A DNA stretch of 49,369 nucleotides, the filler included, from Jimgerdemannia flammicorona (lineage: Eukaryota), in assembly GCA_003990765.1 (NCBI GenBank). It is 2 parts of 2 records of this genome, joined end to end, with 100 filler letters (N's around TTAATTAATTAA, not from the genome) between each part and the next. Parts side by side here need not be neighbours in the genome. Positions count along the whole stretch, not along the records: positions 24,738 to 49,369 come from RBNJ01000949.1; 1 more part is not named here. The stretch is one strand, 5' to 3'. The notes below the pieces were generated by a model, which saw only the letters and a program-made list of their open reading frames with translations, ran no database searches and was not told the DNA's origin. The position numbers were made by a program, and so were the translations under genes. Position 1 is the stretch's first letter; every line of letters starts with the position of its first letter. This document shows positions 16,397-49,369 of the stretch, piece after piece.

Positions 16397-16457
<61 letters not shown>

Positions 16458-24486: not shown

Positions 24487-24637
24487 TAGTGCTCCAAACG
24501 AGTCAATTCGAATCAAATCCGGATTCGATTCGTCACATGACGGTTTGATTCGAATCTCAAATCCGAAGCCATCCGGATCAACTCAGATTTAATCCGAATC
24601 GCCCCATCCGAATCGCCCCATCCGAATCACCCATCCG
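24487..24637 (+). mobile_element. left end of a younger hAT copy (D2), cut by the gap
   Basis: Colinear with 16844-16990 but with CpGs intact. Confidence 0.85.
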
Positions 24638-24737
24638 NNNNNNNNNNNNNNNNNNNNNNNNNNNNNNNNNNNNNNNNNNNNTTAATTAATTAANNNNNNN
24701 NNNNNNNNNNNNNNNNNNNNNNNNNNNNNNNNNNNNN
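24638..24737. other. assembly gap with artificial TTAATTAATTAA linker
   Basis: 100-position N run with a central 12-mer giving stops in all six frames. Confidence 0.95.
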
Positions 24738-24957
24738 TTTTTTTATAGTCACTTGGACTCCACTATTTATTTCCATCTATTAATAATTTTACAGTTTTAC
24801 CCTCTCACTACCCGATCCCCATAGGAGTACCACTCTGCCTATTCATACAAACAAAAACCACTTTCGCACTCACAACCCCAATCCTCCCTCTACTCTGCCT
24901 ACAGATTTATTCTACCAAATGACACCTTCGACCCCCTTTCAACCCCCAACCCAGCCA

Positions 24958-27900
24958 TCAGCCCGTCAAGGTGTCTTCCATAAGGCTATGCCACCTCATC
25001 AGCCTGACCTCGGAGCCAAGTTTCCTCCCATCCTCAAATACAAATAGCCAGTGACTGGCCAGCCCCACCCAAATGGCCAAAGCCCACCCTAACGTCAGCC
25101 ATTCCTTCCCCACCCCCCCCTCCAGTCTATCCCTTAAGTCCTCCCATCGCCCCTGCACCTCAGCTCTCCTGCGCACTATTCCCAGATGATCTCTAATGTT
25201 CTGCCAAAAGGAATGAAGTACCTCACACTCTCCTAGCCAATGTTCAGGCATCTATACATATCCCCCTTCCTGCCCTACATTATAACACTCCTCACAGTCG
25301 AAGCAGCCCCCCTTGATAAGGTGACCAGAGCAGAAGTTGAGCATAACATTTCGCCTCAGCACATGCCACCAGACCACCCAGTACTTCAGCAGCAACCACC
25401 TCTGTACCTTGGCACTCCAGGCCCATATGCTATGCCAGTCCCACTCCTCACCGATTCCTACACCCTGCCAACTACTAGGCCACAGATCCTGGCCTGGTCC
25501 CCATTGGCATTTAACCCCATCATCAATGTCAAACTCAAGTAAGGGAACACCACCTAGTAACACTCAGTCCTATCTCCATATTGCTGGATCCCAAGCCTCC
25601 TCCCCTTCATTTCTCTGCTACCTAATCCCAATGCGGTGTGCCCCCTCTGCCACTCCCCACCAGAAGCCTTTGTATCATAGTTGCCCAGAGTTCTGAAGGC
25701 CCACAAGTGCTAGGAGATCACCCATCGAACCTCTCAGAGAGGATCTCATCTCCTAGAATTTCTACAGTAGTGGAACCCAACCACCTCCTCTCAACTCTAC
25801 TGCTCTCTTCAGCCACCAAGCTCTCAAGCAGTGCAGCCTCTTAGGAAAGTCAATCAGCCCAAGTCTCCTACTCACCACTGGTAAGGACAAGACCTCCCAG
25901 TTGATCTGACTCTGCCTTCCAGCCCAGATCCACCCCTTGGCCAGCTTCATCAATTGCTTCACCACCCAAGCTGGGAAGTCTAGATGATAAGCCAGATACT
26001 ATACCTTCGGCAGCCAATAGATATTCAGAATCAAAATGCAGCCCGCCAGAGACAAATAACGGCCCCTCCAACTCCTCAGGGCCTCCTCCCAAATGCCAAC
26101 CTGCTGCTCCCACCAAAGTCTGGACAGAACCGACCCATACACTGACAGAAAAATACCCAAGTACTGCACTGCCTCACCAGCAGGGACAATCATACCAATA
26201 ATCTCCCTGCCCACTAGACCATTGCCTAACACCATTGTTTCGCACTTATGCCAATTAAGCCTAGCCCCAGAGTTCACCTCATACCACTCTACTGTCTTCT
26301 TGAGCTCCTCAACATCCGCAACTGATCTCAGACTGACCACCATGTTATCTGCAAATGCCCCTACTTTCCACCTGATGCCAAAGATAGAGAGCCCTACTAT
26401 CTTCTGCCATATTCTGTCCATGAAGGGCTCCAGAGACAAAGCATACAAAATGGGGGACAGTGAGTCCCCCTGGGGCGCCCCCCTACCCAGGGGAAATGCT
26501 ACCCCTCTATGTCCATTACACATGAGTACTGCCCTACTTCCTTCCAATAGACTGACCATAGCGGTCCTGAACTATCATGGGACCCCAATCCTATCCAAAA
26601 CTTTTGCCAACCAGACCTATCGCACCTGGTCATAGGCCTTCTCCTAGTCCAAAAAGACCAGATGCCCATCCAGTCTACTGGCTCGCACCCCTTCAATAAC
26701 TCCATGTACCCATGCTATACTATCCCTGATGAGCCGGCCTCCAACAAAGCCCCGCTGCTCCTCACTCAAGACTTGCTAGGCTACCTTTTGCAATCTTGCA
26801 ACCACCACTTTGGTAACCAACTTTCTGTCCATATCCAGTAGCATAATCAGCCTCTAGTTCTTCTAGTTCTCTTGGCTTCCTTTGTTCTTATAAAGCAATG
26901 TCACCAACCCTAGATCCTGTTCTCCCACCCATCTCCCTATCTATAGAATCCAATCACACAATGCCCTTATCTCTCTCACTATTCCAGAGACTCCCACTAT
27001 TCTTTTCCAGAAGTCCCAGGGCAGACCATCCTCTCCAGGTGCCATACCCAAGGTTGTCGCAGCAAGAACCTGGTGGATCTCCTCCTCTAGCACTGGCAGT
27101 ACTAAGTCATCCAACCCAGCTACTCGAGTAGAGTGCCAATCCTCCAAGGCCTGATCAATGTCCTCAGCATCTGCCCCACCCTCCTCCTCACTCCACAATC
27201 CACTCCAATGCTCCTTTAAGGAGCCAAGAATGTCTTGTACCCCATGTACCAATGAACCATCAGCATTAAGCACCCCCTCCCACCTTTGCTGCACTCTTCT
27301 CACCTGAAGGGCCCTTGAAAGATACTTCAAGAGCCACTCTCCTTCCTCCAGCCCCTGCCAATGAAGCCATGCTGCCAGACCCTGGACCCTAGCCTCCTCC
27401 TCAATCTGCAGCACCTATTGTAGTTCAGCCACCTCTATTTGTAACCTTATTGAACACCAGTCCTCCTCTCCCTCCAATGTCGCCAGTCTTGCCCAGTCCC
27501 CCAAGAGTCTAGATAGTCTACGCACCACACCTGCTGCCTCCTCTGTCTCCCCGCCTCCAAACCAGCCTCACTCCAGAAGGCCCTGGCTATCTTCTTCATC
27601 CTCATCCACTGAATATCGACTGTGACACCTTCCACTCCACCTGCATTTGAATAACTTTGGCCCATTTACCCCACCTGATCTTGTCATCTAGTAGGGAGGA
27701 ATTGAGATGCCAATGTCCAGGCCCATCCCCACTTCCCCCAAAATGTCCCTGCCCCAAAAGCCCCCAATGATCTGACCAAAGACACCATTCCACCTCCAAT
27801 GACTTTCAAACATCCAGGCCCCAGCAGCTGGCCATCAGAATCCAATCAATCCTTGTCCCCAGGCCTCTGGCCCAGTGTGTGTACACCTTCCTATTCCCCC

Positions 27901-28447
27901 AACATTCTCTACCTGCATCTACCAGAGCACTAAGTCTCTCCACTTCCTCCCATACTGCCAGTTCTCCACTCTGCCCCACAGCACCTTGTCCTCCATCAGT
28001 TCTATTCCTCAATATGTCTCTGACCATATTGAAGTCCCCACCCAGCACATCTACCCCAACCTCCATAAGAATCCCACTCTCCTGTAGGTCCGTCACCCAG
28101 TTCACCCACTTGCCCTGTACCACAGAGCAGTAACAGGAGTCCACCATGACTAGCTCCCAATCTGCATGTATCCACTCTCCCCAGACCAATCTATCCCCCC
28201 AGCTCTGCACATCCTGTATCTCCCCTCTGCCCTTCTGCACCAGAATTTCAACCTTGCCCTTCCAAACTACCTCACCTCCCCACTCCTTCATCCATTCCAG
28301 TCTATCCAAGTCATCCTCACACCTGACATCCTGCAAGAGGAAGAGATCAGCCTCCAATCCCTTCAGCCAAGTAAAAATGTTCTTACATCAATAAGCACCC
28401 CATAACCCATTTATGTTCAAAGAAAAAATGTTGGTTGTACTATTCAT
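24958..28447 (-). pseudogene. LINE ORF2: APE endonuclease - RT - C-terminal Cys/His motif
   Basis: SLNINGL, DLFLLQD, VLGGDFN, TRIDWIL, SDH; APGEDGLP, QGDSLSP, FADN, YLG; CFDC...EHWLGEC; stops and frameshifts. Confidence 0.92.
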
Positions 28448-28478
28448 AAGAGAGATTATATAGTTCCAGATGCACCCT

Positions 28479-30512
28479 CTACTGCTCCATGTCCACTTCC
28501 TCTTGTGCCCTGTCCAGGTTGCGCTCAGCAGTAGCTTCAGCTTCCTTGATCCTCTTAGCCTCCAATTCAGCCAGGATTTCAGTCGTCTCCCCATCCTCCT
28601 TTTTCTCAAACTCCTTGCAGTACTCCAAACAGACCTCCTGCCAGAGCTGCAACCCATGCCTCTTGGTCCAACAGTGGGCAGCCCACTCACATGCCACAAT
28701 TGCCAGCATAGCTTCCCTCTCCTTATCTACCTCATACCCCTCCTCCTCCAAGTATACTGCCAGAATCTCTGCCTTCAATGCCACCTCCACTCCATCACCT
28801 TGCAGGATCTCTGCCCAATGCTCATCACTCATCACTCGAAGGTCAACCTCCCCCAGCTCTTCTGCTGCCAAGTTGTTCATCATCTGGTATACCCAGAGCA
28901 AGTTTCCTACCTCCTTCCCTCCTGGGGTTGCTGGCCTCCTTCCATCCAACATCATAGTATCAGCCCCCACACTTGCTGACTTATTCCATCTCTCCTCTGG
29001 GACATCCACCAATTCCTCTTCCCCAGTTGCCTCTACCAATCCCCCCTTCTCAACATTTGGGACTCCAAAGTGCACCTGCTGAGCACCATACATCGGCACA
29101 TTGTCCACCACCCTACCTCTCACCGCCAGACCCCTTCTGATAAGGGGAGAGGGTGAAGGTGAATCCTCCCAGGTTTCCTCCCAAACCTCCAGTGTGCCAT
29201 CTTCATACAGATTCTTGTTCAGCATCTTTACAGTCTCCACCTGCCCCCCCTCCTCATTCCTTCCACTACTAGCAGCCCAGACACTCACCTCAGCACCTCC
29301 AGTAGTTACACTATCACCCACCTTCCTTGTCACCTCCGCCCCCATTTTTGCTAACAATTCCCTCTGCCTTCTACGCCCTTGGGACCTCTCCCACACCTCC
29401 ATGTTGATATGGACTCGCTTTCCTCCAACCACCTCAAGATGTGTCACCGCCTCAAATGCTTTCCATGCTTTTGCCCTCCTCTCAACTACTCCACTCAACT
29501 CTTCCAGTGCCTCCAGCAAATCCTCCTCCTCCTCCTTGCTCCCCTTTACTCTTGTTACCTTGTGCAAGATAGCCCCCCACATCATCACTAAGGGCCAGTC
29601 CCAAGCCTTCCCAGTAGCCTCCCACCCAGCCAGCCGAATCCTGACATCAACATCACCAGTCCAGAGGGAGGTTCCTTCCCACACTCTGAACCCAATATCA
29701 ACCATCTCTCCATACTCCGCCATAATCTCCTCAACTCTCTTCCTCATCTCTACAGCAGTAACAGTGGGAACTCCTTTCACCAGAAGTTGCACTACTCTTG
29801 GGTCCCACCACAGGCATCTCACCATTGGTACATATACTTCGCCCACTTTCATTCCAGCCTTCAAAGCCTCCTCCAGTGGCCCAGTCTCCTCAAATCCCAC
29901 CTCCACCCCTTCTAGGCCCTTCAGGAACTTAACCGATGCCACCCCACTCATCTGCTTCACAATCAGCCCTAGAACCATTTTTGTCATCACCGCCAAGCCC
30001 TGGAAACACATCATGACTGCAAATTCTGAGATCAACTTCTTGAGTAACAGAGCTACTGTCAGTTCTGTTACACCATCTGCCAGGTCCCCAGGCCTCGTGC
30101 CCTTCCCACTGCTCAGTTCACCATCAGCAGTCCCATCTAGATTTTTTTCCAGATTGCCTGTCACACCCCCATCAGCAGTCTCCACCCCAGCTGCTACCCC
30201 CCCTGCTCCACCCCTATGGCCCTCCAGAGAGGTACCCCCAAGAGGTTGCTACCTGGTTGCCCTCACTGGCACCTTTCCCCCCCTCAGCCAGCTCTCCAGT
30301 CCAGCTCCCTGCTGACCCCCCTTCACCTTCTCTGCAAAGCTCACTCTGCCAGACCCTTGACTGCCAGCTCTGCCCCCTCCTTCACCACAGCCTCCCACCA
30401 GCAGGCCCCTCATGCTTCCCCCCAAGCCAGGGCCTCTCCCCACTTGCTGCCATTCAAAAGCTCCAGGGCTACCCTGCCCAGTACGCACCTCAGGAAGCTC
30501 GTTGGTCACCAT
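28479..30512 (-). pseudogene. LINE ORF1 (678 codons, one internal TAG at 30249)
   Basis: ORF-track 30249-30512 and 28479-30185 are in frame; SFAEKVK motif, RRM-like LLVKGVP..EYGEMV..WTG region, acidic coiled-coil-like tail; directly upstream of ORF2. Confidence 0.82.
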
Positions 30513-30610
30513 GATACTAGTAGCTTGTCTCCAGAAACTATATCAAAAGTGTTGCCAAAAGATTGTGTAACCTGAATGTTACCAGAGAAAGATGGCATGC
30601 CTCAATATAT

Positions 30611-31339
30611 TTATTATACATCTCGCGTATGTTGATGTCACGTGGGATGATGTCATCGCTGATAACATCATCACGTTTGGCTGTGGTGGGAAAATCAGAA
30701 ACAAGATCTGGAGCTCTCCAGTCTATGAGGTTCCCTTCCACAAAATAGGGAACAAATATGGGGTCTTGGAGAGGTCTAACCTGGATGCTTGGGCCTTGGA
30801 ATACTGAGATCAATCCTTGCAGGAATTGGTCTGGGTTGTTCTGAAGGATAGAATGCCAGAAGTCTTCTACTTCTTCACTGTTGAGGGTGATAGTGAACTG
30901 GGCTTCTGTAGCCACCCTGGCTTCAAGTGCATTGATACAGTGGGATGATAGGTCTCTGAAGTCTGAGACTCTAACATACTTCAAGTTGGAGATTGACCAT
31001 GATGCATGCCTGAAGATCTGATGCATCTTCTTAGCTGTCCTTGTTTCATATATATCCATGGGAGTGGCATCTTGTAGCTCTTGGGTGCTGGCTTTTGGGA
31101 ACTCCTGGCAGAGGAGGTTTCCTATTTCATACTCCTGCCACATTTGGAGGCATTCAGTAGCAATAGTGATCCTTGTTTCCATTTCATGGTGGTAGAGAAT
31201 GAAGTAATAAGGGTCTGCAGTAACTAGGAGTCCTTCTTGAGTAAGTCCTCATGGCTCTTCTGATGTCTTGGAACATCCTTTCCTCAACCGAGATACCTTG
31301 GTGATTCCTTGACCTTGAGGTTTGGCGTGCAGCAGGCAT
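30611..31339 (-). pseudogene. U3 ORF in the A2 3' LTR
   Basis: ~190 uninterrupted codons from 31182; small deletion near 31222. Confidence 0.78.
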
Positions 31340-31581
31340 TTTGTTTATGGTAAGTCTTTGAGCTATTTTGGGATTAGTGGTTCTTGTTGGTGGCTACTAC
31401 TGCAGTTTCTTGATCCTTCTTTTATATTCTTCAGGATACTTGTACTGTAGTCACAATGACTCACAGTTGGTCATCATTGCTCATCTCATATACCATATGA
31501 TCTTCTTGTGCTCCAATCTGGTGGCTTGCAAGGAAAGGCTGTCTCCTGTGCTGATATCATCATTCTGGGGTCACTGTTACA
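30611..31581 (-). repeat. partial 3' LTR of A2
   Basis: PPT AGGAGGAAGA (31582-31591) then TGTAACAGTGA; homology stops near 30611 at the LINE. Confidence 0.9.
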
Positions 31582-31894
31582 TCTTCCTCCTGAATAAGGA
31601 TCTTCCTGAGCATCCTTATTCATTGGTCTAGTTCTGAAAAAATTGCTGATCCCATAACCTCTGGCAAGGGGTCGAAAACTGGTGTTTATGGGCTAGCATC
31701 TTCCCTTTATATTTTGGCATAATGGTGAAGGGTTGCTCCCTTCATATAGAGCAAGGGCCTGATTCTGATCTTGACCAATCAGTTGATAGTTCAAACTCCT
31801 CTGACTTCGAAAGTCTCACAAATGAGTAGTTGCCAGTGCTGTATCTCTTAGAGAATGGTCCAGACAGATAGCCTGCTGGTCACAGGACATGCTG

Positions 31895-33135
31895 TTATGA
31901 TTCACGGACTAGAACCTCATGGGCGGTTATCACATTTTGCTTTTTTTGTATAGATTCATGATACTTCTTAAGTCTGTTCCTATATACTATAGTAGGCAGT
32001 ATGGTCTCTGAGATTTTTCTAAGCCAGAAGGTAGTTCTCTTGATATCTTGCATGTAGAAGGGTCCTTCCCATTTGGGCTCCAGTTTTTGTAACTATGAGG
32101 CTTCTACTATATTTCGATATAGTAGAATCTTTTCTCCGATTCGGATGGGTTCTAGGGCCTTGTGATTCTTTTCTGCATTCTTCCTTGTCAGTGCTTGTGA
32201 CTTGGTGATATAATCTTCAGCCTTCTTCCTGATTTGGTGTAGTCTCTGGATTTCTGCATCAACCCATCTCTAAGTTAGGTCTAGATTTGTGGCTGAGATT
32301 CCATCAGAATCTTCTTCTCCGAAGAGCAGCTCTCTTGGGGTAAAATGTGTGCTCTGTGACTGTATGTCTCGTAGAACAGAGAGGGCAGTTGGGAGATAGT
32401 TATCTCAATTCTCATATGTCTCTGAGATCTTTGCTAGGATGTTCTTGAGGTCTTGTTGGTTCTCTCTGTCTGTCCATTTCCTTGAGGGTGGTATGTGGTG
32501 GTCTTGATATGCTGGATCTTATATTTCTGATATATTATCTCATGGAATCCATTGACAAATTCTGTGCCACAGTCTGTTGTGATTTGCTTTGGTGTCTTGT
32601 AGTGGCAGATGATTTCTCAGTATAGGAAGTCAGCTATAGCACTGGCTTCTTGTAGTGCTCCTGCCTCTATCCATTTGGTGAAGAGGTCTACAATAACTAT
32701 AATATAGTAATTTCCTAATAATATTACTAGTAGTGATCTAATGATATCTATTGTAATGTGGTGGAAGAGGATAGGCTCAATTCTTGATGACCCAGGTGCC
32801 TGGTCTTGCTGATCTTGTTTCTGTTTTTGGCACTTGTCACACCCTTTGACAAATTGGTGCAGGTCTTCTTCTATCTTGGGCCACTACATAGTTCTTCTTG
32901 CCTTGTCATATATGTTGGTTCCTCCTAAGTATCCTTGCTCATGTACTTCCTTCATTACTTGATACTTCTTATGTTCAGATATTACTAGCTTTCCTCCTTT
33001 TCTGAGTGTAGTGTTGTCTAATTCAAACTGTTTCCAAGTCTAGTTGATGATGGTAATTGTCCAGAGTTTGAGGTGGTTGGACATCTTCTGCTGCCCAAGA
33101 TAGCTGATTAATCCATAGTATAGCTCCTTATTCAT
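31895..33135 (-). pseudogene. integrase of A2 with its own ATG
   Basis: MNKELYYGLISYL, HEQG.LG, CDKCQ, VDLFTKW, YHPQGNGQTER, PKWEGPFY. Confidence 0.9.
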
Positions 33136-33925
33136 GTTGAGTGGTCTTGATGGAGGTGTTTTGGGGTATCCTTGAGAGTGTATTGGCATTGGTGTTGGTC
33201 TTTCCTGAGTGGTACTTGATAGTATAGTTATACTCTTGCAGCCTGTAGATCCATCTAGCATATATTCCTTTGGGGTTCAGAGTGTAGAATAGCCAGGCAA
33301 GAGCGGAATGGTCCATTTGAATGGTGAAGTATTTTCCAGCTAGGTAGTAGTGGAACTTGTCTACTGCCCAAACTACCACTAAGTATTCAAGCTTACATGA
33401 CTCGTAGTTCTGTTCCACTCCATGGGTACCTCGGCTTGCATAGGAGATGACATATTCATGTCCATCTTTCTTCTGAGCTAGGACTGCTCCAAGCTCTATA
33501 GTACTTGCATCTGTCTGCAGGATGAATTCTAGGTTCCAGTCTGGTCTTCTGAGGATAGGTGCTTGGGTCAACCTGATCTTGAGTTTATTGAAGGTTTCTT
33601 GGCACTCCTTGGTCTATTCGAATTTGGTCTCCTTCTTCAGTAGCTCATAGATAGGTGCTGTAATGTTGGAGTATCCTTTGATGAATCTTCTGTAGTAGCT
33701 GGCCAGTCCAAGGAAGGTGTGGACTTCTGTGGTTGTTCTGGGTCTTGGGTAGGCTGCAACAGCCTCAATCTCTATAGAGTCTGTGTGGATTCTGGTCTGG
33801 TTGATGAGGTATCCTAGGTAGGCAATTTCTTGAGCTACAAACTTACATTTCTTAGGCTTGATGTAGAGGCCATGCTCCTTGAGCCTCTTGAGGGCTAGCT
33901 GTATGTGATTGACATGTTCCTGTGC
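33128..33925 (-). pseudogene. RT C-terminus and RNase H of A2
   Basis: KPKKCKF, YLG, FLGLASYYRRFI, LQTDAS, ARWIYRLQEY. Confidence 0.92.
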
Positions 33926-35990
33926 TGTAAGAGGGTTGCTTTTTAGGGTAACCATTACATAGTTCTGGAAGGGTTTTCTGGAAGTTCTGAATATTCTGAA
34001 AGACTGTTTTCTTATGGTCAAGATCAATTTCATATGAAGTACGTCCTCTACACTTATTGATTTCAAGATCAGGTTGACGTCTCAACCAAAGTCCTTTTTC
34101 AGACTAGTTCTGGATATTCGGATTTTCCGTATTTCAGGAAGTTCAAGAAACTAAGACCAGCTTAGTTGAATTGGTATATTGCTACAGACAATACCCAATT
34201 AAGAAATTTCGTGATGGGGTTAGGAATGGGACCTAACAGGGAGTGGATTTACTTAAGAGTAGTTTGTGGATTATTAAATAGATTTATTTGCTATTTATGA
34301 TATTGCTATACTAGGAGTAGTTATATGGAGGGATATTGTGGAGAAGTGTTCAGGAATGTTCTTATGTATTCGAGTCTAAGATTCTGAGGTCTGGGGGAGG
34401 GAGTATTTATATTAGTGAGAGGCTATCTGGACTATGCTGAATATGGATATACATAGCACTAAGTACCTTGCTGAGTCAGAATGCAGTCATATAGTACAAG
34501 TGTGATCTGACATATCAAGAGATCATCTGGCTGCTGAGTCAGTTCACAGTCACATCATATAAGGCTAATCTAACTATACTATGACTGCTAGGCTATTTAT
34601 GAGTTTAGGCACTATCTGGGTAGTCCTCAATGACATCACTATCAATTGCATCATCTCTGATGAAGTAGTTATCTAGGAAGAGTGGTTTGCGGATTACTTC
34701 TCCTTGTTCGCTGAGGTAATAATATATTGGAACTTTGTCTCTATCCCACAAGATGGCATCATCAGTCTCATATGCTGGATAAGGTATTGGTGGGCAAAGG
34801 AGGGGTGCATCATCTTCACTTTTGTCAGATTTGCTGTCTGCATACTTTCTGTAGGTTATAGCACTATGAGTCATGGGGTTGTAGTAAGCTGGTGGCTGTG
34901 GTTCATGTTGCTCATACTTAGGTGGTGGAGTGGTTGGTTCAATCTCGAGAGTTGTCTGGAGGTACAGGTTGTGTTCTCCAGTCTCTTCATTGTAGTTGAA
35001 GTAATCAGGAGTAAACGTGGGTTGGTATTCATGCCAGTGGTCATTGTCCCAATAAGTCTCGTATGCTGTTATGAATTGTTGTAAGTTCATCGGTAAGGTT
35101 GGTGGTGTGATCAGAGTTGGCAGAGATCCTTGGCTAGAGGTCATGTTGGCATCAGAGAGATCATTGTCTTCTGCTTTGTCTTCATTGAAGTGGATTATAT
35201 CATAGATGTCCTTCATGGTGTATCCAACTTGGGACATTTGCAGGATATGATCATTGGGGTGTGGGAAGGTTCTATCTGTGGTTTCGACATACTCGAGGTA
35301 CTTGTGGTTGAGTTCTTGTATCATGTTGTCGATTTGGCCATAGGATAGAGTAGCAACCATTTCAGCTGTGGTAACTCGGAGGCAGGGAATAACAGTACTA
35401 TACTTGTAGAAGAGTTCTCGATGTTTGTGGGCAATGAGCTTCTGGTGTTGAGACATCTGGGTAATGTCTGTATCATGGTGGTGTTTGATCATATCTTCCA
35501 GGAGGTGGCTGATCTGGTAGTAGCTTGAGATTTATCCAATTCAGTAGGCCTCGCTAAGTATGTTCAGAGCATTCCATCGGGCTTCTACAAAGTAGAGGGG
35601 TGCTAGACTATGGATATTCATGAGGGGTAGAGGGGGTGTGGCTCCATTGACAATGGTATTCCAAATGTCAGCGCAGACATAGGTATAGATCTTGGTGGTC
35701 ATATTTGTGTGTTTGGAAGTTGTAGTTGTTGTTTGTTTTAGTTCTCTGATTCGACGTATCTTAGTGCTCGGTATATATGCATTTGATTCTGATTGGTAAG
35801 ATTCTGTTTATGTAAATCTTGTGTTCTGTGACTTCGTATTGACTCAGCTTTATGCACTGTGACTTCGGTTTGACTCAGCTTTGTGATCAAGCAAGTAATT
35901 TCCAGATTTGTTCAGAGGTTATGTGTAATTTCAGTGGCTTGTTCAGAGGGTGATGTGTAATTTCAGTGGCTTAGAGGTTGTATGCTTACA
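33926..35990 (-). repeat. 3' LTR of B1 (2065 bp)
   Basis: TGTAAG...CTTACA; TATAAATA near 34405 on the minus strand. Confidence 0.95.
34605..35702 (-). pseudogene. U3-encoded ORF of family B (365 codons, unknown function)
   Basis: 295-aa open segment plus 70 upstream codons with two stops (TGA, TAA) that are sense in B2. Confidence 0.82.
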
Positions 35991-36004
35991 ACTCTCCCCT
36001 TCTT
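35991..36004 (-). promoter_or_regulatory. polypurine tract of B1
   Basis: AAGAAGGGGAGAGT before the 3' LTR; same in B2 (23590-23603). Confidence 0.85.
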
Positions 36005-36416
36005 AGCTTTCGACATCCTCGTTGGGGCCTTCTAATTTTGTTCTAGTGTTGTTACACCATTTGGGAGGTCAAAAGTCCAGTAAAGTCTATTTTTTCAGAA
36101 AGTGGCATGCTCATAGTACAGTTGCCTAATGCATTGGATTCATATATTAAAGAGTTGTGTGTTCAATGCTGTATGCTGGAAGTGATTCTGATGTCATTCA
36201 CTGCTGGAGAATTTCCTCTAAGGAATCTTCTTAAATGTCTATGCCTTGTTTCCCACCAGTGGTATGGGGAGAATGGGCTTGCTTTCAGTTTTGTTATTTT
36301 TCCAGAGGGTCAGTATTCTTGTCTTATTTTGCTGAGTTCTTGGTTTGGTTTGCAATAATTATAATATTTAGAGGAATAATATATAGTATGTATGGATAGG
36401 TGCAGAGTATTTGGTT

Positions 36417-39400
36417 CTAGTAGTTCAAGAAATCATATTCCTGAACTAGGTCAGTAGTATTCTGGAGATTGGTCTTGAGTTCCCAGGTTGCATCATGGAT
36501 CAGGTAACCTTTCCATTTGACAAGGTACTCAGGGTGGCTCTTGTTGCCATGTTTATTGAGGATTTGTTCAACTTCGTACTCTTCTTGATCATTAATAATG
36601 ACAGGTGCAGGTGGTTTGGTTGTCTGATTTGGAAATAGCTCATCATCATTCTTATTATATCGCTTGAGACGTTGAATATTAAAGACTGGGTGAATCTTAA
36701 TGGTGTCCAGTAGCACCAATTTGTAGGAGGTTGGAGAGACTTGTACAATGACTTCAAATGGTCCAATGAACTTGCTGTTCAGCTTTGTAGATGGTCTGTG
36801 CTTGAGGTTGTCAACTCGGTAACCTCTGATGTCCAGTAGAACTTTTTCTCCAATATCAAAGGTTTCTTCTCAGTGGTGTTAGTTAACATACTGTGACTGT
36901 TGTTCTTGAGCTTATGATAAATTCTCGATGGCAATCTGGCTTAGATTGTATATTTGAAGTAAGAATTCTTCAACAGCTTTGACTGTAGAGGGTTCTTCAG
37001 TTATTCGGATAAGTATCAAAGGGGTGTTTGGGTTTTGTTCAGTGTTGGCAAAGAATGGGGTCATTCCGAGATAGGCTTGCTTGCTATTGTTATAGACAAA
37101 CTCAACTGTGGTGAGGTGTTCATGCCAGTCCTCTTGTCTGTAGGAAACATAGTTCCTTAGCATTTGTTCCAGAGTTCGGTTCATTCTTTCAGTTTGGCCA
37201 TTAGTTTCTGGGTGAAAGGCTGTGGATAGTGCAAGTTTTGTTCCAAGGTGTGTATGGAGGGCTTTCCAAAAATTGCTGGTGAATTTTGAGTCTTGGTCAC
37301 TAATGATGATCTTGGGAAGACCATGGTAGTGGAAGATGTTGTCAAACAAGAGTGTGGCTATGTCTGGTGCTGTTGCAGTAGTGGTAGTAGGCACAAAGTG
37401 AGCTTGTTTGCTGAGATAGTCCACAAAGATAACAATTGCATCTTTTCTGTTCTTAGTTTGGGGTAGTTATACAATGAAGTCTATAGAGATTTGTTCCCAA
37501 TTCGCAGATAGTACTGGAATAGAGTGAAGTAAGCCAGGTTTTGCTAGTGTTGAGGACTTGTTTCATTGGCAGGCATTACAGAAAGTGATATAGGTTTTGA
37601 GCTAATCTGCCATGCAGGGCCAGTAGAAGTTTCAGGAGATAACTTTGTAACATTTATCAAATCCTAAATGTTCAGCTATAGGGGCATCATGACATTCAAA
37701 TAGGATAGTCCTTCGGAGGTCTCAGTTGTTTGGGACATACAGTCTGTCTTTGTAGTAGATAGCATTGTCCTTCAGTTGGTATTGATGATACTGTGTATGC
37801 TTGTCAGCATTATTACTATTCAGGATTTCTTGCAGTGCTTGAGCTTCCTTATCATCGGCACATGCTGTGATAATTTGTTCCATGATGGAGTTTGTAACCA
37901 AGGTGAGAGTTTGGATAACCTCTTCAATTGGTGGTCTGGAGATTGCATTGGCAATAATATTTTTCTTGTCAGGGTGGTACTGAATTTCATAGTCAAAGTT
38001 GGTGAGGACTTTCATCCATCTAGCTTGCCTTCAAGAAAGGGTAGCCTGTGTCTTGATATTGACTAATAACTTGTGGTCAGTCAATATAGTAAAGTGTGCT
38101 CCTTCTAGATATGGTTGCCATTTGATCAGAGTGTCTACGATGGCTAGCATTTCCTTCTCGTGGGTTGCATAGTTAATTTCAGCATCATTGAACTTGTGGG
38201 AGTGATAGGCCACAGGGTGTCCTTCTTGCATGAGTACTGCTCCAAGAGCTAGGTTAGAGGCATCAGTAGTAACTTTATATGGCAGTGCAGGGTTTGCCAC
38301 TTGAAGTACTGGAGTGGTTATCAGAGCATCCTTTAGTGCTTGAAAGGCAGTATCTTGCTCAGGTCCCCAAGTTATAAGATTGTTGAAGTCTTTCTCTTAT
38401 TTTATGGTCCAGGGTTGTTCTTATTTCTTGCTATGCTTGGTCATTTGGGTGAGGGCAGTAATGATTTTAGCAAAGTTGGCAACAAATCACCTGTAATAGT
38501 TTGCTAATTCCAGGAATGACTAGAGGTCTTTCAGCTTCTTGGGTCTGGGCCAATCTTTGATTGTGGAGATTTTGCTGGGGTCCACTTTGATTCCATTTGG
38601 AGTGACAATGTGTCCAAGGAATTGAATTTCTTTCAGAAGAAATTCGCACTTACTGAGTTTTGCAAAGAGTTGGTTTTCTCAGAGTTTCAGTAGTACTAGT
38701 TCAAGGTGTTCAAGATATTCCTCCAGGGTTTTGCTGAAGACTAGGATGTCATCAATGTAGACAATAACGAATTTGTCTAGATATGGATGCAGAATGGTAT
38801 TCATCAGTATCTGGAAGGTTGCTGGAGCATTAGTTAAGCTAAAGGGCATAACCAGGAACTCAAAGTGTCCATAGCGAGTTCAGAAAGCTGTCTTGTAGAT
38901 GTCTTCTTCTTTTATAGCAATTTACCAATAGCCATTTCACAGATCAAAAGAGCTCATGAATTGTGGGTTGATAAGTCTATCAAATATTTCATCAATCCTT
39001 GGTAGTGGGCAACAGTTCTTGATAGTCTGTTCATTGAGATCATGGTAGTCAATGCACATTTGCAGGTCTCCTCCTTTTTTGACAACAAAGAGGACTGGTG
39101 TGCCATAGGGTGATGCACTGGGTCTGATGAATCCTTATTCTAGGAGTTTGTCAATTTCTTTCTTGAGTGCATTGATTTCTCTCGGAGACATATGGTAGAT
39201 TGACTTGAAGGCTGGTTTGGCATCTGGGATAGTCTTGATGGCATAGTCTACTGCTCATTTAAGAGGTAGGCCTTTTGGAAGTTTCTTTGGGAATATGTCT
39301 CGAAATTTCTGGAGTAGTGGTCTGATATGGCTGTCAACTTTGGAAAAATCTTCTTCAGAGTTCTCAGGTTCTCCTTTGGATGGGCAGATGGAGATGGTGA

Positions 39401-42215
39401 AGAGAGGGCATTTCTTGGCCAATTTCTTAAGTTGTAGCTTGTTGATGTGGGTGATCTTTGGTCCAGGGTCACTAGAATTAAGTGGGTCCTTTTCGCCTTA
39501 CAGTTTGAAGTTGTGGTGTCCTTTCTTGATGGTCAGAGAATGGTTTACCCAATCGATCATAGGGTTCTCTTGTTTTAACCATGGAGTCCCAAGGATGATT
39601 TCATTGTCAGGAAGTGGTACGATTTGGAGGGTAACATGTACTCAGTAGTCACCAATTCAGAAGGGTAGATTGCAGACTTCTTTGCTAATAACATGTGAGG
39701 TTCCATCAGCTATAGCAACTGCTTGAGTTTGCTGTACTAAAGAGGTGAAGACCTTGAGTCTGTTGACTGTCTCTTCATTGATAAAGTTGCCTGAGGCACC
39801 ACTGTCTATCATAATCTTGACAGGTGCTCGATTGACAAAAGCCTTAAGTGTGAGCAGTTTGTCTGATCCAATGGTGGTTATTTCGGTTGTAGGAGCTTTC
39901 CTTCTATTGGTTCTTCTTTGTGCCAGTTCATTGACACAAGAGAAGCAATCATCAATCATTTGGGAAGAGTACATTCCAATGCTATGAGGGCATTGGCCAC
40001 TTGGTATATATCTATCTTCAATCTTCTTATAGAATTGTTCTTCTTTGCTTATGGTAGGTTGGGCTGGGGCCTTGTTTGATGAGCCAAATCCTTTGAATCC
40101 TCGGATGGTGGGCAGTAGTTCAGGGACTTCCTTGACTGTCAGGGTTGACTCGATTTTTTCGAATAGGATCTGGGCAATGCAGAAACCAATAGGGATCTTG
40201 AAGGGTGTCCAACTGTGGTTTTAGATGAGGACAATAATTTCACCTGTGTAATCCTTGTCAATAACTCCTCCTTCTACTGAGAATTCTTTCAATGCTAGGC
40301 TGCTATGACAGCATATTCTTCCAACATGTCCTTCAGAGATTTAGATACTGATTCCTATGTAGACTTATTTGACTTCTCAGTTGGAAACTATAGCTTCTTC
40401 GGCTGCATACAGGTCATATCCAGCTGCTTTCTGACTTCCTTTGGCTGGGGTCTTAGCAGTTTGTCTTAACTTAACAAAGTCCAGTGTTCTGGTGGTCAGG
40501 TTGTTGAGGTGGTGCAGAGTGGTAACAGTTGCTTGTGTTGCTGTTCAGGGTTTTCGGTTAGGGCAGGCACTGGCCATATGTCCTGTCTTTCGACAATAGA
40601 AGCATGCTCCGCTTCTTCAAAGTTCATTCCTTTCACCTTTGGTAAGTTTCTTGAAGGTACTTGGCTGGGTGGGTTCATAATTTCTGGGTATCCAAGAGGT
40701 GGATGTGGAGGGAGCTTGAGATGCTTCATACTTGGGTTCTTCTTTCTTGGTCCAAGTCTTTTTCTTGTTGTTGAATTGTCTTCGGGGCAGAATTGGTCCA
40801 GCTGTAGGATTCACTTGACTATAGTCTTGATTCTTACCAGACACTATTGTTGGTGATCACAACCAACTGGGCGGCCTTGTTCTCAGATTTTTCTAATAAG
40901 CCATTCAGACAGGGCATCGAATAAATGGTCTGCTCTTATACCATTTCATGCTTCATCATTGGCAATATATCCTAGGCTAACAGTGTTCAGGAGTGACTCG
41001 AGTTTTGTACAGAAGGTTTCAAATTCTTCTTTGTCATATATATCGAATTTGAGGTTGCGGAGTTTTACTCGGGATTCAGCGATCATGGTTTCGCTGCAGT
41101 ATTGGGCAATCATGAGTTGTTTGAGTCCAGGGGCTGCAGGATGGACTCCATATCCTGGGGCATTGTTTGCTGCATTCTGAGAAACTACTGCAGGTTGGAT
41201 ATCCCATGTGAGGGGTTTTTCAGGAAGGGTTCGCCACCATTCTTTGGCAGGTCCTTGGAAGAATGTAACAACTCAGTGGATATAGGCTGTAGTGGTAGCA
41301 AAGAGTTGTTCCAGAGTGTGGTCTTGATTGTTTATCAGAACACAGTCAGCAACTCGCTCATTAGTCCATTGATTGACTTCAAAGTTAGTGTCAACTATAC
41401 TAATAAAGCTTTGGACTTCTTGTGCAGTACCATTGAAGATAGGTAGGCTCAGATTTTTGATAGGTTGAGTCTGTTTAGCTAAGGCAGTAATGGTTGCTGC
41501 CATTATGGCTACCTAGGCTGTGAGGTCTAGAATCTGTTGGTTTACCATGTTGTTTACTGGAGGCAGTTGGACTGCTGGTAGTAGTGTTACTGGTACTACT
41601 TGAGGTACTAGTACAGAGTGTGATGGGGTTCTTTGAGTCTGTATAAGTTGCTGGAGTAGTAGTTGTGGGTCTGGAGTAAGGGCTTAATAGATAACTATTT
41701 GTTGCTGAGTAGGTATATTCTGTCCTGATGGAAGTACTTCTCCTTCGGTGGTATATCTGGGATCGAATTCAGTGAGATACTCCTCCTCCTCTTTAGTTTG
41801 GTCCCTGTGTAATTGGGTTTGCTCAGCATCAAAGTAGATGGAATCAGTTATATATCTGATTTCGGATGGACCTAATTCAAAGTCAAGTTCAGGTTCAGTA
41901 TTGGTTTTAGATTCAGGTAGGGCTGTAGCAGGGCCTTCTTCAGATTCAGGGTCAGGTAGTTGATGAAGGGTTTCTCTTGCTTCTTCTTAAGGATATGGCA
42001 GGCCTTGCTGTTCTGGAATCAGTAGTATAATGTGGTCTTGGTCCTGGTATAGTGAAAGTCGGTAGAGTTGAGCCACTTGGCTACAGAGGCTTGAGCTTTG
42101 TGAGGAACTAAGGCTAGAAAGACTGCTGCTGGTTGTCCTAGGTCGCTCGGATTTGTGGAGCTGACAAAACTCTTGTTGAGAAGAGTAAAGAAGGCTTCAA
42201 TAAGACTTTCTTCAT
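36417..42215 (-). pseudogene. Gag-Pol of B1 (start codon uncertain)
   Basis: Gag LPIFNG/AKEWW; CFYCRKTGHMASAC; PR IMIDSGASGNFI; RT VYIDD ~38750; RH TTDAS; IN SDQDSKF, FHPETNGQTER; chromodomain ~36417-36590. Confidence 0.93.
40075..40485 (-). pseudogene. dUTPase domain between Zn knuckle and protease (B1)
   Basis: Manual translation: AAGYDL, (H)SSLA, GGVIDKDYTGEI, IAQ, RGFKGFGSS; not in the ORF track because of stops. Confidence 0.92.
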
Positions 42216-42494
42216 CTTGACTTGCTGGGTGTAGTGCAAGGAGTTCGGTGAATAGGGTTTCGCCTATTTGCTAGTTTAATCAGAGTACTTCTTTCTTTGA
42301 ATGAAGTTTATCCCACTTGTTGCAGGTGTGGAGGTCAAATTGTCCTTGTACGTCAGGTTCAATTCTCTCCAGATTGTCAGATGGTTCAGGATAAATTCCA
42401 GTTCAGAGGTTGGGCTTTGTACCAACTTGTAGGAATTCTCAGAAGAGTTTGTAGTGGGGTGAGGAAGCGTCTTGAAGCAGAATTGGATTGTAAA

Positions 42495-42506
42495 CCACTA
42501 CTACCA
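42495..42506 (-). promoter_or_regulatory. primer-binding site of B1
   Basis: TGGTAGTAGTGG 3 nt after the LTR; compatible with a C>T-decayed tRNA-iMet type TGGTAGC (inference). Confidence 0.7.
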
Positions 42507-42509
42507 AGT

Positions 42510-44570
42510 TGTAAGAGGGTTGCTTTTTAGGGTAACTGTTATGTAGTTCTGGAAGGGTTTTCTGGAAGTTCTGGATATTCTGGAAGACCATTTTCTTATG
42601 GTCAAGATCAATTTCGTATGGAGTATATCCTCTACACTTATTGATTTCAAGATCAGGTTGACGTCTCAACTAAAGTCCTTTTTCGGACTAGTTCTGGATG
42701 TTCAGATTTTCCATATTTCAGAAAGTTCAAGAAACTAAGACCAGCTTAGTTGAATTGGCATATCGCTGCAGACAATACCTAATTAAGAAATTTCATAACA
42801 GGGTTAGGAGTGGGACCTAATAGGAAGTGGATTTACTTAAGAGTGGTTTGTGGGTTATTAAATAGGTTTATTTGCTATTCATGATATTGCTATACTAGGA
42901 GTAGTTGTGTAGAGGGATATTGTGGAGAAGTATTCAGGAATGTTCTTGTATATTCGAGTCTAAGATTCTGAGGTCTGGGGGAGGGGGTATTTATACTAGT
43001 GAGGGGCTATCTGGACTATGCTGAATATGGATGTAGCACCAAGTACCTTGCTGAGTCAGAATGCAGTCATATAGTATAAGTGTGATCTGACATGTCAAGA
43101 GATCGTCTGGCTGCTAAGTCAGTTCACAGTCATGTCGTACAAGACTAATCTAACTATACTATGACTGCTAGGCTATTTATGGGTTTAGGCACTGTCTGGG
43201 TTGTCCTCGATGACATCACCATCAATTGCATCATCTCTGATGAAGTAGTCATCTAGGAAGAGTGGTTTGTGGATTACTTCTCCTTATTCACTGAGGTAAT
43301 AATATATTGGAACTTCGTCTCTATCCCACAAGATGGCATCATCAGTCTCGTATACTGGATAAGGTGTTGATGGATGAAGGAGGGGTACATCATTTTCACT
43401 TTCATCAGATTTGCTGTCTGCATACCTTCTGTAGGTTACAGCACTATGAGTCACAGGGTTGTAGTAAGCTGGTGGCTGTGGTTCATGTTGCTCATATTCA
43501 GGTAGTAGAGTGGTTGGTTCAATCTCGAGGGTTGTCTGGAGGTATAGGTTGTATTCTCCAGTCTCTTCATTATAGTTGAAGTAATCAGGAGTAAATATGA
43601 GTTGGTATTCATGCCAGTGGTCATTGTCCCAATAAGTCTCGTATGCTGTTATGAATTGTTGTAAGTTCATCAGTAAGATTGGTGGTGTGATCAGGGTTGG
43701 CAGAGATCCTTGGCTAGAGGTCATGTTGGCATCAGAGAAATCATTGTCTTCTGCTTTATCTTCATCGAAGTGGATTATATCATAGATGTCCTTCATGGCA
43801 TATCCAACTTGGGGCATTTGCAGGATATGATCATTGAGGTGTGGGAAGGTTCTATCTGTGGTTTCGACATACTCGAGGTACTTGTGGTCGAGTTCTTGTA
43901 TCATGTCATCAATTTGGCCATAGGACAGGGTAGCAACCATTTCGGCTGTGGTAACTCGGAGGCGGGGAATAATGGTGCTATACTCATAGAAGAGTTCTCG
44001 ATGTTTGCAGGTGATGAGCTTCTGGTGTTGAGACATCTAGGTAATGTCTGTATCATGGTGGTATTTGATCATGTCTTCCAGGAGACAGTTGATCTGGTAG
44101 TAGCTTGAGATTTGTCCAATTCAGTGGGCCTTGCTAAGTATGTTCAGAGCATTCCATCAGGCTTCCATGAAGTAGAGGGGTGCTAGGCTATGGATATTCA
44201 TGAGGGGCAGAGGGGGTGTGGCTCTATTGACAATGGTATTTCAAATATCAGTGCGGATATAGGTATAGATCTCGGTGGTCATGTTTGTATAATTAGAAGT
44301 TGTGGTTGTTATTTGTTTTGGTTCTCTGATTCAATGCATCTTGGTACTCAGTATATATGCATTTGATCCTGATTGGTAAGATTCTGTTTATGTAAATTTT
44401 GTGTTCTGTAACTTCGTATTGACTCAGCTTTGTGTGCTGTGACTTCGGTTTGACTCAGCTTCATGATCAAGCAGGTGATTTCCAGATTTGTTCAGAGGTC
44501 GCATGTGATTTCAGTGGCTTGTTCAGAGGGTGACATGTAATTTCAGTGGCTTGGAGGTTGTACACTTACA
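42510..44570 (-). repeat. 5' LTR of B1 (2061 bp)
   Basis: Colinear with 33926-35990. Confidence 0.95.
43185..44282 (-). pseudogene. U3 ORF copy in the B1 5' LTR
   Basis: Same 1098-nt length as the 3' LTR copy; 250-aa open segment. Confidence 0.82.
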
Positions 44571-47500
44571 TGTGCAGTATTGCTGAAGATGATCACATTA
44601 TCAATATAGACAAAGAGCCATTTTCCAATCTCATTGCTGAAGACTTTATTCATCATTCACTGGAAACTTGCTGGGGCATTGCATATTCCAAATGGTATTC
44701 GCAGATAGATATAGGTGGCATCAGGTGTGATGAAGGCTAATTTCTCACTGGTATCTTGAGTGAGACCAATCTGATGGAAGCCTGAGAACAGATCCAAGGT
44801 GGTGTAGTATTTGGCTTCACTTCCAAGAGTGGTAAGGATTTCTTGAATATTCAGCAAGGGCTGCCTATCCTTCTTGGTGATGGCATTGAGTTTCCTGTAG
44901 TCAATACAGAGTCTTGGTGCAAACTCTCTAGGCTTGCTTTCTTTCTTTGGAGCAAGGACAATAGGTGAGGCCCAGGGGCTGATAGCTTGCTTGATGATTC
45001 TGGCTTCTTCCATTTCCTTGAGTTTGGCTCACAGCCACTCTCTGTAGGCAGGTGGTATGGGTCTGGCTTTGTGGTAGATAGGCTTAGTATCACCAGTGTC
45101 AACTTCGTGATAGTACTTGGGTTCTTGATTGTGGATATCCCTAAAGTCTGTAGCAAGTACTCCTTCATTCTGATACAGGATCTTGAGAAGTTGTTCCTCC
45201 AGGGGAAAGTTTTCTCCAATAGTATATATGTGCTTGTTCTGGTCCTTATCTTTCTTGTGCTCAAGTTCAGTAATCTTAGTGGTGGCATAGGCTCCTCTTC
45301 CAGTAGATCCAAAGCCTTGTTCTCCTCTCTTGGTCTTGATAAGTTCAGTGGCTTCTATAATCTTGGGCTTCTTGATTTCATGGATCAGCATCTGGCCAAT
45401 CCTGTCATGCTTCTTGACTTCAAAGGGGGTGGTGTGGTTGTGATTTCTGACTATGAGAAAAATCTCGCCAGTGTAATTAGGGTAAATTACTCCTCCTTTA
45501 ACTGAGTTTTCGCTTTTGGCCAGACTGCTTCTGGTCTTGATAATTCTGACATGGTTTTCTGGTAACTTGACTCCAATTCCAGTGCCAAGTAGGGTAGTGG
45601 TCTGTGGTTTGAGGGTAGCATCTTGGATGCTGGCAAGGTCCATTCCTATGGCTCCTTCAGTCTTGTATTCTGGGATCTTGGCTTCAGGGTGAAACTTCTT
45701 GACCTTGAGGGTGATGTCTGATTCTTGTTCCTCCTTGTCATTACTGTCAGCTTGAAGCTCTGGGGGCTAGTCATCTTCTTCAGCTTTCCTTTTTGCTTTG
45801 GCAGCTTCTTGCTCGTGTTTCTGTTGGTGGATTTTCCTGACTTCGCTGATACAGGACCAGCAGTTATTCAGGTGTTTGGAGCAGTACATTCTAGTACCAT
45901 GGGGGCATCTTCCTTGAGGGGCATACCCATCAATGATCTTGTTATACCACTGCTCATCTGTGAGCTTGTGTGTCTTGTTCTTGTTCTTGTTCACTGAGTG
46001 CATGAAGACCTCTGTGTCTTCTTCATCTCCTTCCTCTATATCTGGCAGGACTCCTTTATGGATATTGATAGAAACTCATATCTTTCTTCCTCTGTAGTTG
46101 ATCTGCATTTTCTGGGCATTGAGGTCAATGATGGCCTTGGCCTTGTAAAGCCATTGGTTGCCAATGAGGATGTTATAGTTGGTGGTACTTGTAACAATCA
46201 CATCTACTGGGATGGTAGCTCCTCCTATCTTGATGGGGACTTCTCAGATTTTGCCAAGGGGGGTAGCTTGTATACCATCTGCTGTGATATAGACCATCTT
46301 GGTGGACTCTTCAATGTCCCAACCTAGGCAGTCAATTGCCTTCTTGCTCATAAGGCATCCTCCAGCACTAGTATCAATGATGGCATCAAAGATACAGTCT
46401 TCAATCTGGCAGGGGGTATAGGCTGATGTCTTGCACTGGTCTTTGAATTCTTCACCTGAGTTCTCAGATTCTTCTTGTGCATTGTGAGCTTCTATGATCT
46501 TGTACTCTTGATTCTTGGTAGTAGTTGCAAGTCCTACTCTCAACTGCTATCTGAAGGTAGGGACTTCAGCTAGCTGCCCAAAAGTGGCATTGATCTTCTG
46601 TTCCTTAAGGTCCTTGTAGATGTCATACTGGTGGATCTTGGTCTTGTACAGCTTCTGTTCCTTCTTGCTCTCACTTTCTCCTGAGACTGGAGTAGTGCCT
46701 TTGATAATTTGGTGGGTAGCTTCATCTAACTCCATGTCTTGATCAATCTCCTCAGGTTGGGTCTTGCTTTGAATAGTGATGGCTGGGGTCTTCTTTGGTC
46801 TTCCAACTGGCTTGCTGTTGCTCTTCTTGTCATAGGGCTTGGACTGGGTTCTGGTACCTTCAGTAACAGGGTAGAATTCGAGCTCCTCATAGTATTCTTC
46901 ATCATCAGTGTCACCAATCTCCTCAATGACTACTGTATTGGTTTGTTCTCTAGTTCTGCTAGCATTGCTTGGTTGGGCTTTACATCTTGTTTTGGTCATG
47001 CAACTCTTTGCATAGTGGCCTTCTTCTCCACATCTGAAGCATGTGATATTGTATTCTTCTATAGCAGCTGCAAATCTCTGCACTGGTCTCCTGTTGGCGC
47101 TTCAGACTTCTCTAACAACATCACCAAGGTGTATAGTCATCTTGGCAAACTGCTTGGCAAGTTCTTCCACTGGGTCAGCTTTGGCTATCTTGGGGGTAGG
47201 TGGGGTTGGTTGTCTGTTTATAACTGTGACAGGTAAGATACTAGTTAGCTTTGATAGCTCCATCTTAATGTCAGTTATTTTCTCCATTGAGTGTTTGGCA
47301 GGGTGTCAGGCAGTCCAATATCTCTATACAAAGACCACTTTCTGATCAAGGGTCAGTGCAGCTGGGGTAGACCAGATTGCTAGGGCAATTTCAGGGTGAA
47401 CTCCTTTGAGGAAGGTTGAATCTGCTATTTGTTCCTTAAGGGCATCATCATAGTCAGCCAAGACAATCTGGTGGCAGATTCAGGTATAGAATGAGTTGGG

Positions 47501-49361: not shown

Positions 49362-49369
49362 TTTTTTTT

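Follow-up and report, generated by a model that had tools for sequence, protein, structure and literature searches.

Probable accessory genes inside the long terminal repeats of two Ty3/Gypsy families in Jimgerdemannia flammicorona

We analysed a 49,369-nt stretch of the Jimgerdemannia flammicorona genome (assembly GCA_003990765.1; the whole stretch is hereafter called the window), which self-comparison and Pfam scans show to contain a nest of retroelements. Two Ty3/Gypsy families in this nest, here called A and B, carry a long protein-coding frame inside their long terminal repeats (LTRs), and these two frames are the subject of the present analysis. An earlier reading of the window, made without database searches (hereafter, the sequence-only reading), had described them as open reading frames (ORFs) lying in the unique 3' (U3) part of the LTR and encoding apparently homologous proteins. 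We consider it likely that each of the two families carried a genuine accessory gene wholly within its presumptive U3, the A and B proteins not being demonstrably related to one another.

Reading frames in the LTRs of families A and B

Element B, a chromoviral Ty3/Gypsy element of family B, occupies positions 33926-44570 on the minus strand. Its 3' LTR (33926-35990, minus strand, 2065 bp, TGTAAG...CTTACA ends) and its 5' LTR (42510-44570, minus strand, 2061 bp) are 91.4% identical by self-blastn. The frame in the 3' LTR runs on the minus strand from an ATG at 35702 to a TAA at 34605-34607, comprises 365 codons plus the stop, and covers LTR positions 289-1386 of 2065 in sense orientation. The coordinates given for this frame by the sequence-only reading (34605..35702, 365 codons) are therefore right, but the frame is not open throughout: stops at codon 54 (TGA, 35541-35543) and codon 57 (TAA, 35532-35534) leave an open run of 308 codons in this copy (34605-35531, protein P0001). 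None of 1000 dinucleotide shuffles of the B LTR reached a run of that length (shuffle maximum 178). The frame is held by all three B copies in the window. In the 5' LTR it lies at 43185-44282 with five internal stops, and in a third LTR copy (22369-23572, minus strand), which has an 814-bp internal deletion, it lies at 22659-23333 (225 codons, one stop, 3' half deleted); adjoining internal sequence extends the region of this third LTR to 22369-24486. The deletion, equivalent to 34215-35027, spans both the 3' half of the frame and the TATA box that is the presumptive genomic promoter. We noticed that the CGA>TGA stop at codon 54 is common to both LTRs of element B (35541-35543 and 44121-44123), the third B copy having CGA at this codon.

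Family A is represented by five LTR copies of the frame. A plus-strand element has LTRs at 1909-3473 and 9192-10730 that are 86.9% identical (self-blastn); the 1565-bp 5' LTR carries the frame at 2155-2979 (275 codons, four stops), corresponding to LTR positions 247-1071 of 1565, and the 3' LTR carries it at 9434-10240 (269 codons, four stops). An additional plus-strand LTR at 17971-19424 has the frame at 18220-19038 (273 codons, two stops). A second family A element lies on the minus strand and is split by element B into halves at 30710-33920 and 44575-48213. Its 5' LTR (47931-49369, minus strand), clipped at the window end, has the frame at 48397-49230 (minus strand, 278 codons, four stops), and its truncated 3' LTR (~30600-31581, minus strand) has a fifth copy at ~30622-31339 (minus strand), which lacks the C-terminus and retains a 236-residue open stretch (P0002) with an 11-nt deletion upstream of it. 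Thus, the frame of about 275 codons reported by the sequence-only reading is recovered in four copies at 269-278 codons, but as an intact ORF it is found nowhere in the window, every copy being damaged. The best A copy has an open run of 216 codons, longer than any run in 1000 dinucleotide shuffles (shuffle maximum 184), and the most decayed A copy is unremarkable by the same measure, its 94-codon run being matched by 88 of 1000 shuffles. One Trp codon of the A frame has turned into a stop independently in three copies.

The LTRs that house these frames are genuine. Both hosts are Ty3/Gypsy (Metaviridae) elements, with direct LTRs, TG..CA ends and, by Pfam, the Pol domain order protease, reverse transcriptase (RT), RNase H, integrase in both families. 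On the minus strand of element B, a polypurine tract (PPT, 35992-36010) stands immediately upstream of the 3' LTR, and a primer-binding site (PBS, TGG..., 42495-42506) stands 3 nt past the 5' LTR; less mutated versions of this PBS were seen at loose ends of contigs from sequencing runs. A 5-bp target-site duplication (33921-33925 and 44571-44575, minus strand, GCACA in sense) flanks element B, which has inserted cleanly, as a nested element, into the RT region of the family A element on the minus strand. Between its LTRs (35991-42509, minus strand), element B is heavily decayed and has Pfam matches to dUTPase, protease, RNase H, integrase, an SH3-like domain and a chromodomain. Family A LTRs have TGTAAC..CACTACA ends, and PBS-like and PPT-like sequences are present. 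In both families the dUTPase is N-terminal to the protease (A: 5682-6086 and 45032-45766; B: 39660-40220), and a gag CCHC knuckle was detected in family A only.

Family B has the chromovirus feature, a chromodomain (PF00385, E 2.4e-14) at the C-terminus of integrase, placed after the SH3-like domain; family A appears not to have it, since scans of two copies, each in three frames, gave no chromodomain with an E-value of 0.01 or lower, with the caveat that these copies are decayed. The assignment of B as chromoviral, and of A as an element with no detected chromodomain, agrees with the sequence-only reading, as does the finding by self-blastn that the A and B LTRs have no nucleotide similarity. 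With only 37% identity between their RNase H domains, the families are distinct lineages. tblastn revealed no further copy or relative of either LTR protein in the window, and a derivation of the two proteins from gag or pol is therefore not detectable.

Relatives of the two proteins and the question of their kinship

Protein databases hold open relatives of both frames. For B, exhaustive phmmer recovered P0010, an N-terminal relative of 128 amino acids that has 80-86% identity and the same Met start, and that has Arg and Gln at the positions of the two stops of the 34605-35702 copy; a second relative, P0009 (247 amino acids, 62-63% identity), covers the C-terminal two thirds, and jointly the two proteins span the whole LTR-B frame. 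No shorter B fragments were found among the proteins of 30-69 amino acids, the only lengths searched for them. For A, a word-indexed search with an A fragment as query returned six relatives with identities of 61-79% (E 1e-102 to 2e-31), among them a complete protein of 271 amino acids whose N-terminal Met and C-terminal LN[FI]LL are those of the window copies. Five extend to the conserved LN[FI]LL despite several differences in tail length. The A alignment contains a nearly invariant block (residues 142-213 of P0005) adjoining an acidic tail of variable length. All relatives come from short metagenome contigs (720-2375 nt), and nucleotide loci were confirmed for none of them, either in metagenome contigs with A and B alignments or in viral contigs with an A alignment.

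The sequence-only reading had taken the A and B proteins to be apparently homologous and had named a non-significant profile-profile score as a refutation. The score is not significant, and the claim is not supported. In the comparison with hhalign, A against B gave a probability of 0.99% (E 0.055, 101 colinear columns); when the B profile was column-shuffled 300 times and compared with the same settings, 68 of the shuffled versions scored at least as high as the true profile, and reversing the profile gave a higher score. BLASTP of A against B found its best segment, a 10-residue acidic motif, at E 0.3, and the region that the sequence-only reading had singled out at E 5.8-58. The peptides quoted in favour of homology are indeed present (those of B partly as a "corrected" reading), but their gapless alignment is no better than chance: the best gapless 37-residue window has nine identities, equal to the core proposed earlier, and 276 of 300 shuffles reach this count. 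The exhaustive phmmer search with the B query, run against 1.84 billion representatives, did not recover an A protein. Amino-acid composition also differs markedly (Tyr 8.5% in B vs 1.8% in A; Arg 2.2% in B vs 8.5% in A). What A and B have in common is position in the LTR and general shape. Judged by these comparisons, they would be two LTR-borne genes in analogous positions, not demonstrably related, and not one family.

It is doubtful, then, that A and B are diverged homologues of one ancient accessory gene, whether inherited from an ancestor common to both lineages or exchanged between the two. Such an origin would account for their analogous placement, in sense orientation, with starts at 247 and 289 nt from the LTR end and upstream of a TATA box and an AATAAA, as well as for the uncommon dUTPase-before-protease layout of both elements. 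The best hhalign alignment is, moreover, colinear and takes in the motifs of the sequence-only reading, and the predicted helices roughly line up under it in the low-confidence models described below. A short acidic motif, RDD[VA]I..D[VI]I, is found in both proteins, but it occurs at different relative positions, and the similarity scores, shuffles and compositions given above all speak against kinship. Since both profiles are shallow (effective number of sequences, Neff, 1.4-1.6) and the structural models are of low confidence, we keep deep homology among the candidates. At an RNase H identity this low between the families, a fast-evolving accessory gene could have diverged past detection, which makes kinship hard to test but lends it no support.

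Both LTR proteins are without a Pfam family at the cut-off, PDB sequence profiles gave no match at E <= 1, and the ESM Atlas had no match of at least 0.9 for the A protein and none usable for B. The AlphaFold models of the two proteins have N-terminal halves that are helical, at low confidence (predicted local distance difference test, pLDDT, 39.2 and 33.4), and the ESM Atlas model of the A protein has a pLDDT of 0.35. The net charge of both proteins turns increasingly negative toward the C-terminus. The N-terminal part of each is thus predicted to be mostly helical, and the C-terminal part to be negatively charged and poorly ordered, a description that the low model confidence leaves soft. 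The N-terminus of the A protein is Arg-rich (+8 across residues 1-60) and its acidic tail contains many hydrophobic residues, a composition that, as a guess, would be compatible with a nucleic-acid-binding or nuclear regulatory protein with an acidic effector tail. For both proteins, a trans-acting regulatory or adaptor role in the life of the element is our weak guess.

Decay, selection and the case for former genes

All eight copies of the frames in the window are dead (three B, five A). Wherever a comparison could be made, the stops are one transition away from a sense codon in other copies or in database relatives, and both stops that break the 34605-35702 copy are of the C>T type. The window as a whole has a CpG observed/expected ratio of 0.14. 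Changes private to single copies are mostly C>T and G>A and depend on the 3' neighbour, at ~0.25 per site-copy for CpG, 0.05-0.10 for CpA and CpC, and ~0.01 for CpT. This decay may reflect methylation-driven deamination or a process resembling repeat-induced point mutation (RIP).

Insertions and deletions in the A frame have largely kept its phase. Five of the six distinct events within the frame are multiples of three (18, 15, 3, 3 and 6 nt), the exception being the private 11-nt deletion, compared with 2 of 13 in the LTR outside the frame (one-sided Fisher ~0.01, computed by hand); the count for the frame drops one 328-column terminal gap caused by the truncated copy. We take the frames as former genes on the basis of the intact relatives elsewhere, which are the strongest evidence, the phase-keeping A indels, and the origin of the stops in single transitions. 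Very probably, therefore, both frames were once real, functional genes.

Several observations weigh against this conclusion. Fixed differences between lineages, as parsimony counts of synonymous to non-synonymous changes, stand at 14:24 for A and 24:23 for B, and private differences arising after insertion stand at 36:79 for A and 19:30 for B. The contrast between fixed and private changes is not significant (Fisher p 0.55 for A and 0.30 for B), and purifying selection is not demonstrated in the window. Pairwise omega, the ratio of non-synonymous to synonymous rates, ranges from 0.3 to ~1.2, with values of 0.3-0.5 for some between-element pairs and ~1 for others. The relatives are few, two for B and six for A among billions of proteins, and as database entries they are open by construction; several of them begin at an internal Met, and the end of P0008 is frameshifted. 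Finally, the codon-54 TGA common to both LTRs of element B may mean that the source element was already broken, or else that a CpG site was hit twice.

These points bear on the possibility that the frames are relics of no function for the element, e.g., a transduced fragment of a host gene or a short-lived frame, which we regard as improbable. The synonymous and non-synonymous counts in the window do fit neutrality, and relics would also agree with the shared codon-54 stop, with the loss of half the frame from one B LTR variant, and with the absence of any known domain in the Pfam and PDB searches. A relic, however, would hardly have been retained in five A copies that represent two or more subfamilies, and in relatives from metagenomes with 61-79% identity, nor would one expect the phase-preserving A indels and the conserved block of P0005, or a B relative that at 63% identity is open over 247 codons. 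A host-like homologue was not found in any protein search run.

Placement in the LTR, transcription signals and known systems

In the B LTR, an TATAAATA box (34404-34411, minus strand, LTR position 1580) is the presumptive promoter of the genomic RNA and likely marks the end of U3. About 120 nt past it stands the only AATAAA of this LTR (34283-34288, minus strand, LTR position 1703), a presumptive poly(A) signal; both motifs are conserved in both B LTRs. Family A has TATAAATA at LTR position 1332 and AATAAA 27 nt later at 1359, conserved in the three LTRs examined (3/3). An TATAAATA followed by AATAAA, downstream of the frames, is the usual layout of U3 and the adjoining repeat (R) region, and the frames accordingly fall in the presumptive U3. 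The sequence-only reading is supported on this point: genuine LTRs contain each frame in full, on the sense strand and upstream of the conserved TATAAATA and AATAAA. It weighs against our interpretation that the U3 boundary, the promoters and the poly(A) site are all presumptive, being read from motifs alone.

A second set of motifs lies upstream of the frames. On the minus strand of the B LTR, two TGASTCA motifs (35871-35877 and 35840-35846, LTR positions 114 and 145) sit in a tandem duplication in the first 170 nt and are kept in all three B LTR copies, and a TATA-like TATATA (35772-35777, minus strand, LTR position 214) lies ~75 nt before the ATG at 35702, at the same position in both full B LTRs. 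Two further TGASTCA motifs (34535-34541 and 34472-34478, minus strand, LTR positions 1450 and 1513) stand between the stop codon and TATAAATA; in the 5' LTR of element B, one of this downstream pair is intact and the other transition-degraded. Family A has a TGASTCA at LTR position 119, which the two LTRs of the minus-strand element keep intact and which transitions have degraded in the three other copies, and a conserved TATAAAA at position 156, ~90 nt before the ATG at 247. We take TGASTCA to be a basic leucine zipper (bZIP) site of the AP-1/Gcn4 type. One B LTR contains five such sites vs ~0.55 expected (scaled from the window shuffle mean of 13.1). Window-wide, the motif is not enriched (19 vs 13.1 expected; 8 of 100 shuffles reach 19), which tells against its significance here.

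Could the frames lie in R or in the unique 5' (U5) region instead? In that event the upstream TATA-like box would start the genomic RNA, whose very long leader would have the frame as its first cistron; both RNA ends would then contain the frame. The TATA-like box that follows the TGASTCA sites 75-90 nt before the ATG in both families would suit such an arrangement, and so would the position of the sole AATAAA of the B LTR downstream of the frame. It would need an R region of >1.2 kb, however, and an R region of that size is unusually long. The downstream module, with its two TGASTCA sites, TATAAATA, and AATAAA ~120 nt (B) or 27 nt (A) further on, is by contrast a conserved and canonical U3/R arrangement, and we judge placement of the frames in R or U5 to be unlikely.

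With the frames placed in U3, it is a tentative possibility, resting on these motifs, that the LTR gene has its own promoter and uses the poly(A) signal of the LTR. The first ~250 nt of the LTR would form a promoter-like module for the gene, in which TGASTCA sites precede a TATA-like box that stands 75-90 nt upstream of the ATG, and the downstream pair of TATAAATA and AATAAA would presumably serve to make the genomic RNA. A transcript of the gene would end at the LTR's own poly(A) signal, so that any LTR (5', 3' or solo) could yield an LTR-only mRNA of ~1.5 kb. A more far-reaching version is a long shot: that the LTRs are two-part transcription units, the upstream module serving the accessory gene and the downstream one the genomic RNA; that every one of them, the many solo LTRs included, could act by itself as the gene of a trans-acting protein (e.g., a transactivator, an antagonist of silencing or a regulator of copy number); and that the A and B proteins diverged deeply from one ancestral LTR gene of this dUTPase-bearing Gypsy group.

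U3-housed accessory genes are a hallmark of some complex retroviruses. The closest parallel is sag of mouse mammary tumour virus (MMTV), a superantigen gene located in the U3 of the LTR and expressed from spliced mRNAs. The frames described here would resemble sag in being complete accessory ORFs, in sense orientation, within a U3 that is presumptive in our case; an ORF inside U3 of the sag type is consequently duplicated in both LTRs. The difference is that MMTV is a vertebrate betaretrovirus, whereas the present elements are Ty3/Gypsy; the LTR proteins, moreover, fell into no known accessory-protein family in the Pfam, PDB and ESM Atlas searches. Lentiviral nef and foamy-virus bel/bet have their starts in the internal region and extend into the 3' U3 without being contained in it. 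They are similar insofar as these 3'-terminal accessory genes have sequence in common with the LTR, and dissimilar insofar as in the present elements the PPT is upstream of the ATG and the entire ORF is inside the LTR. One foamy virus vector study reportedly mentions an ORF in U3.

Among retrotransposons, the additional ORFs (aORFs) described in plant LTR elements (Grande, RIRE2, Retand and env-like ORFs) are, in the parts of the source consulted, internal, mostly between pol and the 3' LTR, and in sense or antisense orientation (PMC7264820). They are comparable as functionally uncharacterised extra ORFs that lack database homologues and are conserved among copies of a family, and they differ in that the ORF here is inside the LTR, downstream of the PPT and also present in the 5' LTR (PMC7264820). 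An internal aORF of the plant type is ruled out for element B, in which the PPT and the LTR start at 35990 precede the ATG at 35702. PMC7264820 nowhere uses the wording "in the LTR", "inside the LTR" or "within LTR". Fungal Ty3/Gypsy elements with a dUTPase have been described from Postia placenta, Phanerochaete chrysosporium and Tuber melanosporum (PMC2864245, in the portions consulted). Families A and B share with PosPlaTy3-3 the arrangement of a dUTPase N-terminal of the protease, then RT, RNase H and integrase, so far as it is set out in those portions (PMC2864245), and family B has a chromodomain as well. A figure legend of the same source lists an "add. ORF" of unknown function, and the text, in the portions consulted, nowhere places an ORF inside an LTR (PMC2864245). 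A term search of a paper on rotifer elements, in the parts consulted, did not find LTR-internal ORFs (PMC5408684), and the words ORF and open reading are absent from a paper on LTR structure (PMC3601003). In the literature searched, which covers few subscription journals, we met with no account of a Metaviridae gene embedded in U3. A complete gene inside the LTR is, on this evidence, unusual for Ty3/Gypsy elements.

Should the interpretation of the two frames as U3-housed accessory genes be true, a "complex" organisation like that of retroviruses could evolve in LTR retrotransposons that have no env gene. Each element would carry the accessory gene twice and leave it in solo LTRs, and long LTRs that are annotated as non-coding may hide genes. 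The present value of these findings is that of a lead, all copies in the window being dead.

Some information on the carriers of these elements comes from contigs of soil-metagenome runs and of runs of one organism, which match both elements at 85-99% likeness. Differences between contigs and elements are overwhelmingly transitions, and summed depth is greater for the LTRs than for the internal regions. Because these depths are of repeats summed over contigs, they permit a single inference, namely that the A and B families are abundant in their carrier.

Other repeats are also present in the window, and scans with Rfam and for tRNAs found no RNA genes. A third Gypsy family, C, fills 10731-17970 (about 10.7-18 kb); it is AT-rich (GC 29-34%) and has 69-74% nucleotide identity to parts of family A pol, and neither recognisable LTRs nor a relative of either LTR protein were found in this remnant. 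Remnants of non-LTR elements resembling long interspersed nuclear elements (LINEs) lie on the minus strand at 21113-22329 and 24486-30600, with an Exo_endo_phos endonuclease and RT. The larger of them (24486-30600) is GC-rich (51%) with a strong negative GC skew, and long frames overlap in it on both strands (28479-30248, minus strand, 589 codons; 29083-30315, plus strand, 410 codons), neither with a Pfam match. At the start of the window, where GC content is 26%, a tandem array at 484-1165 comprises at least seven copies of a ~61-nt unit at 63-86% identity.

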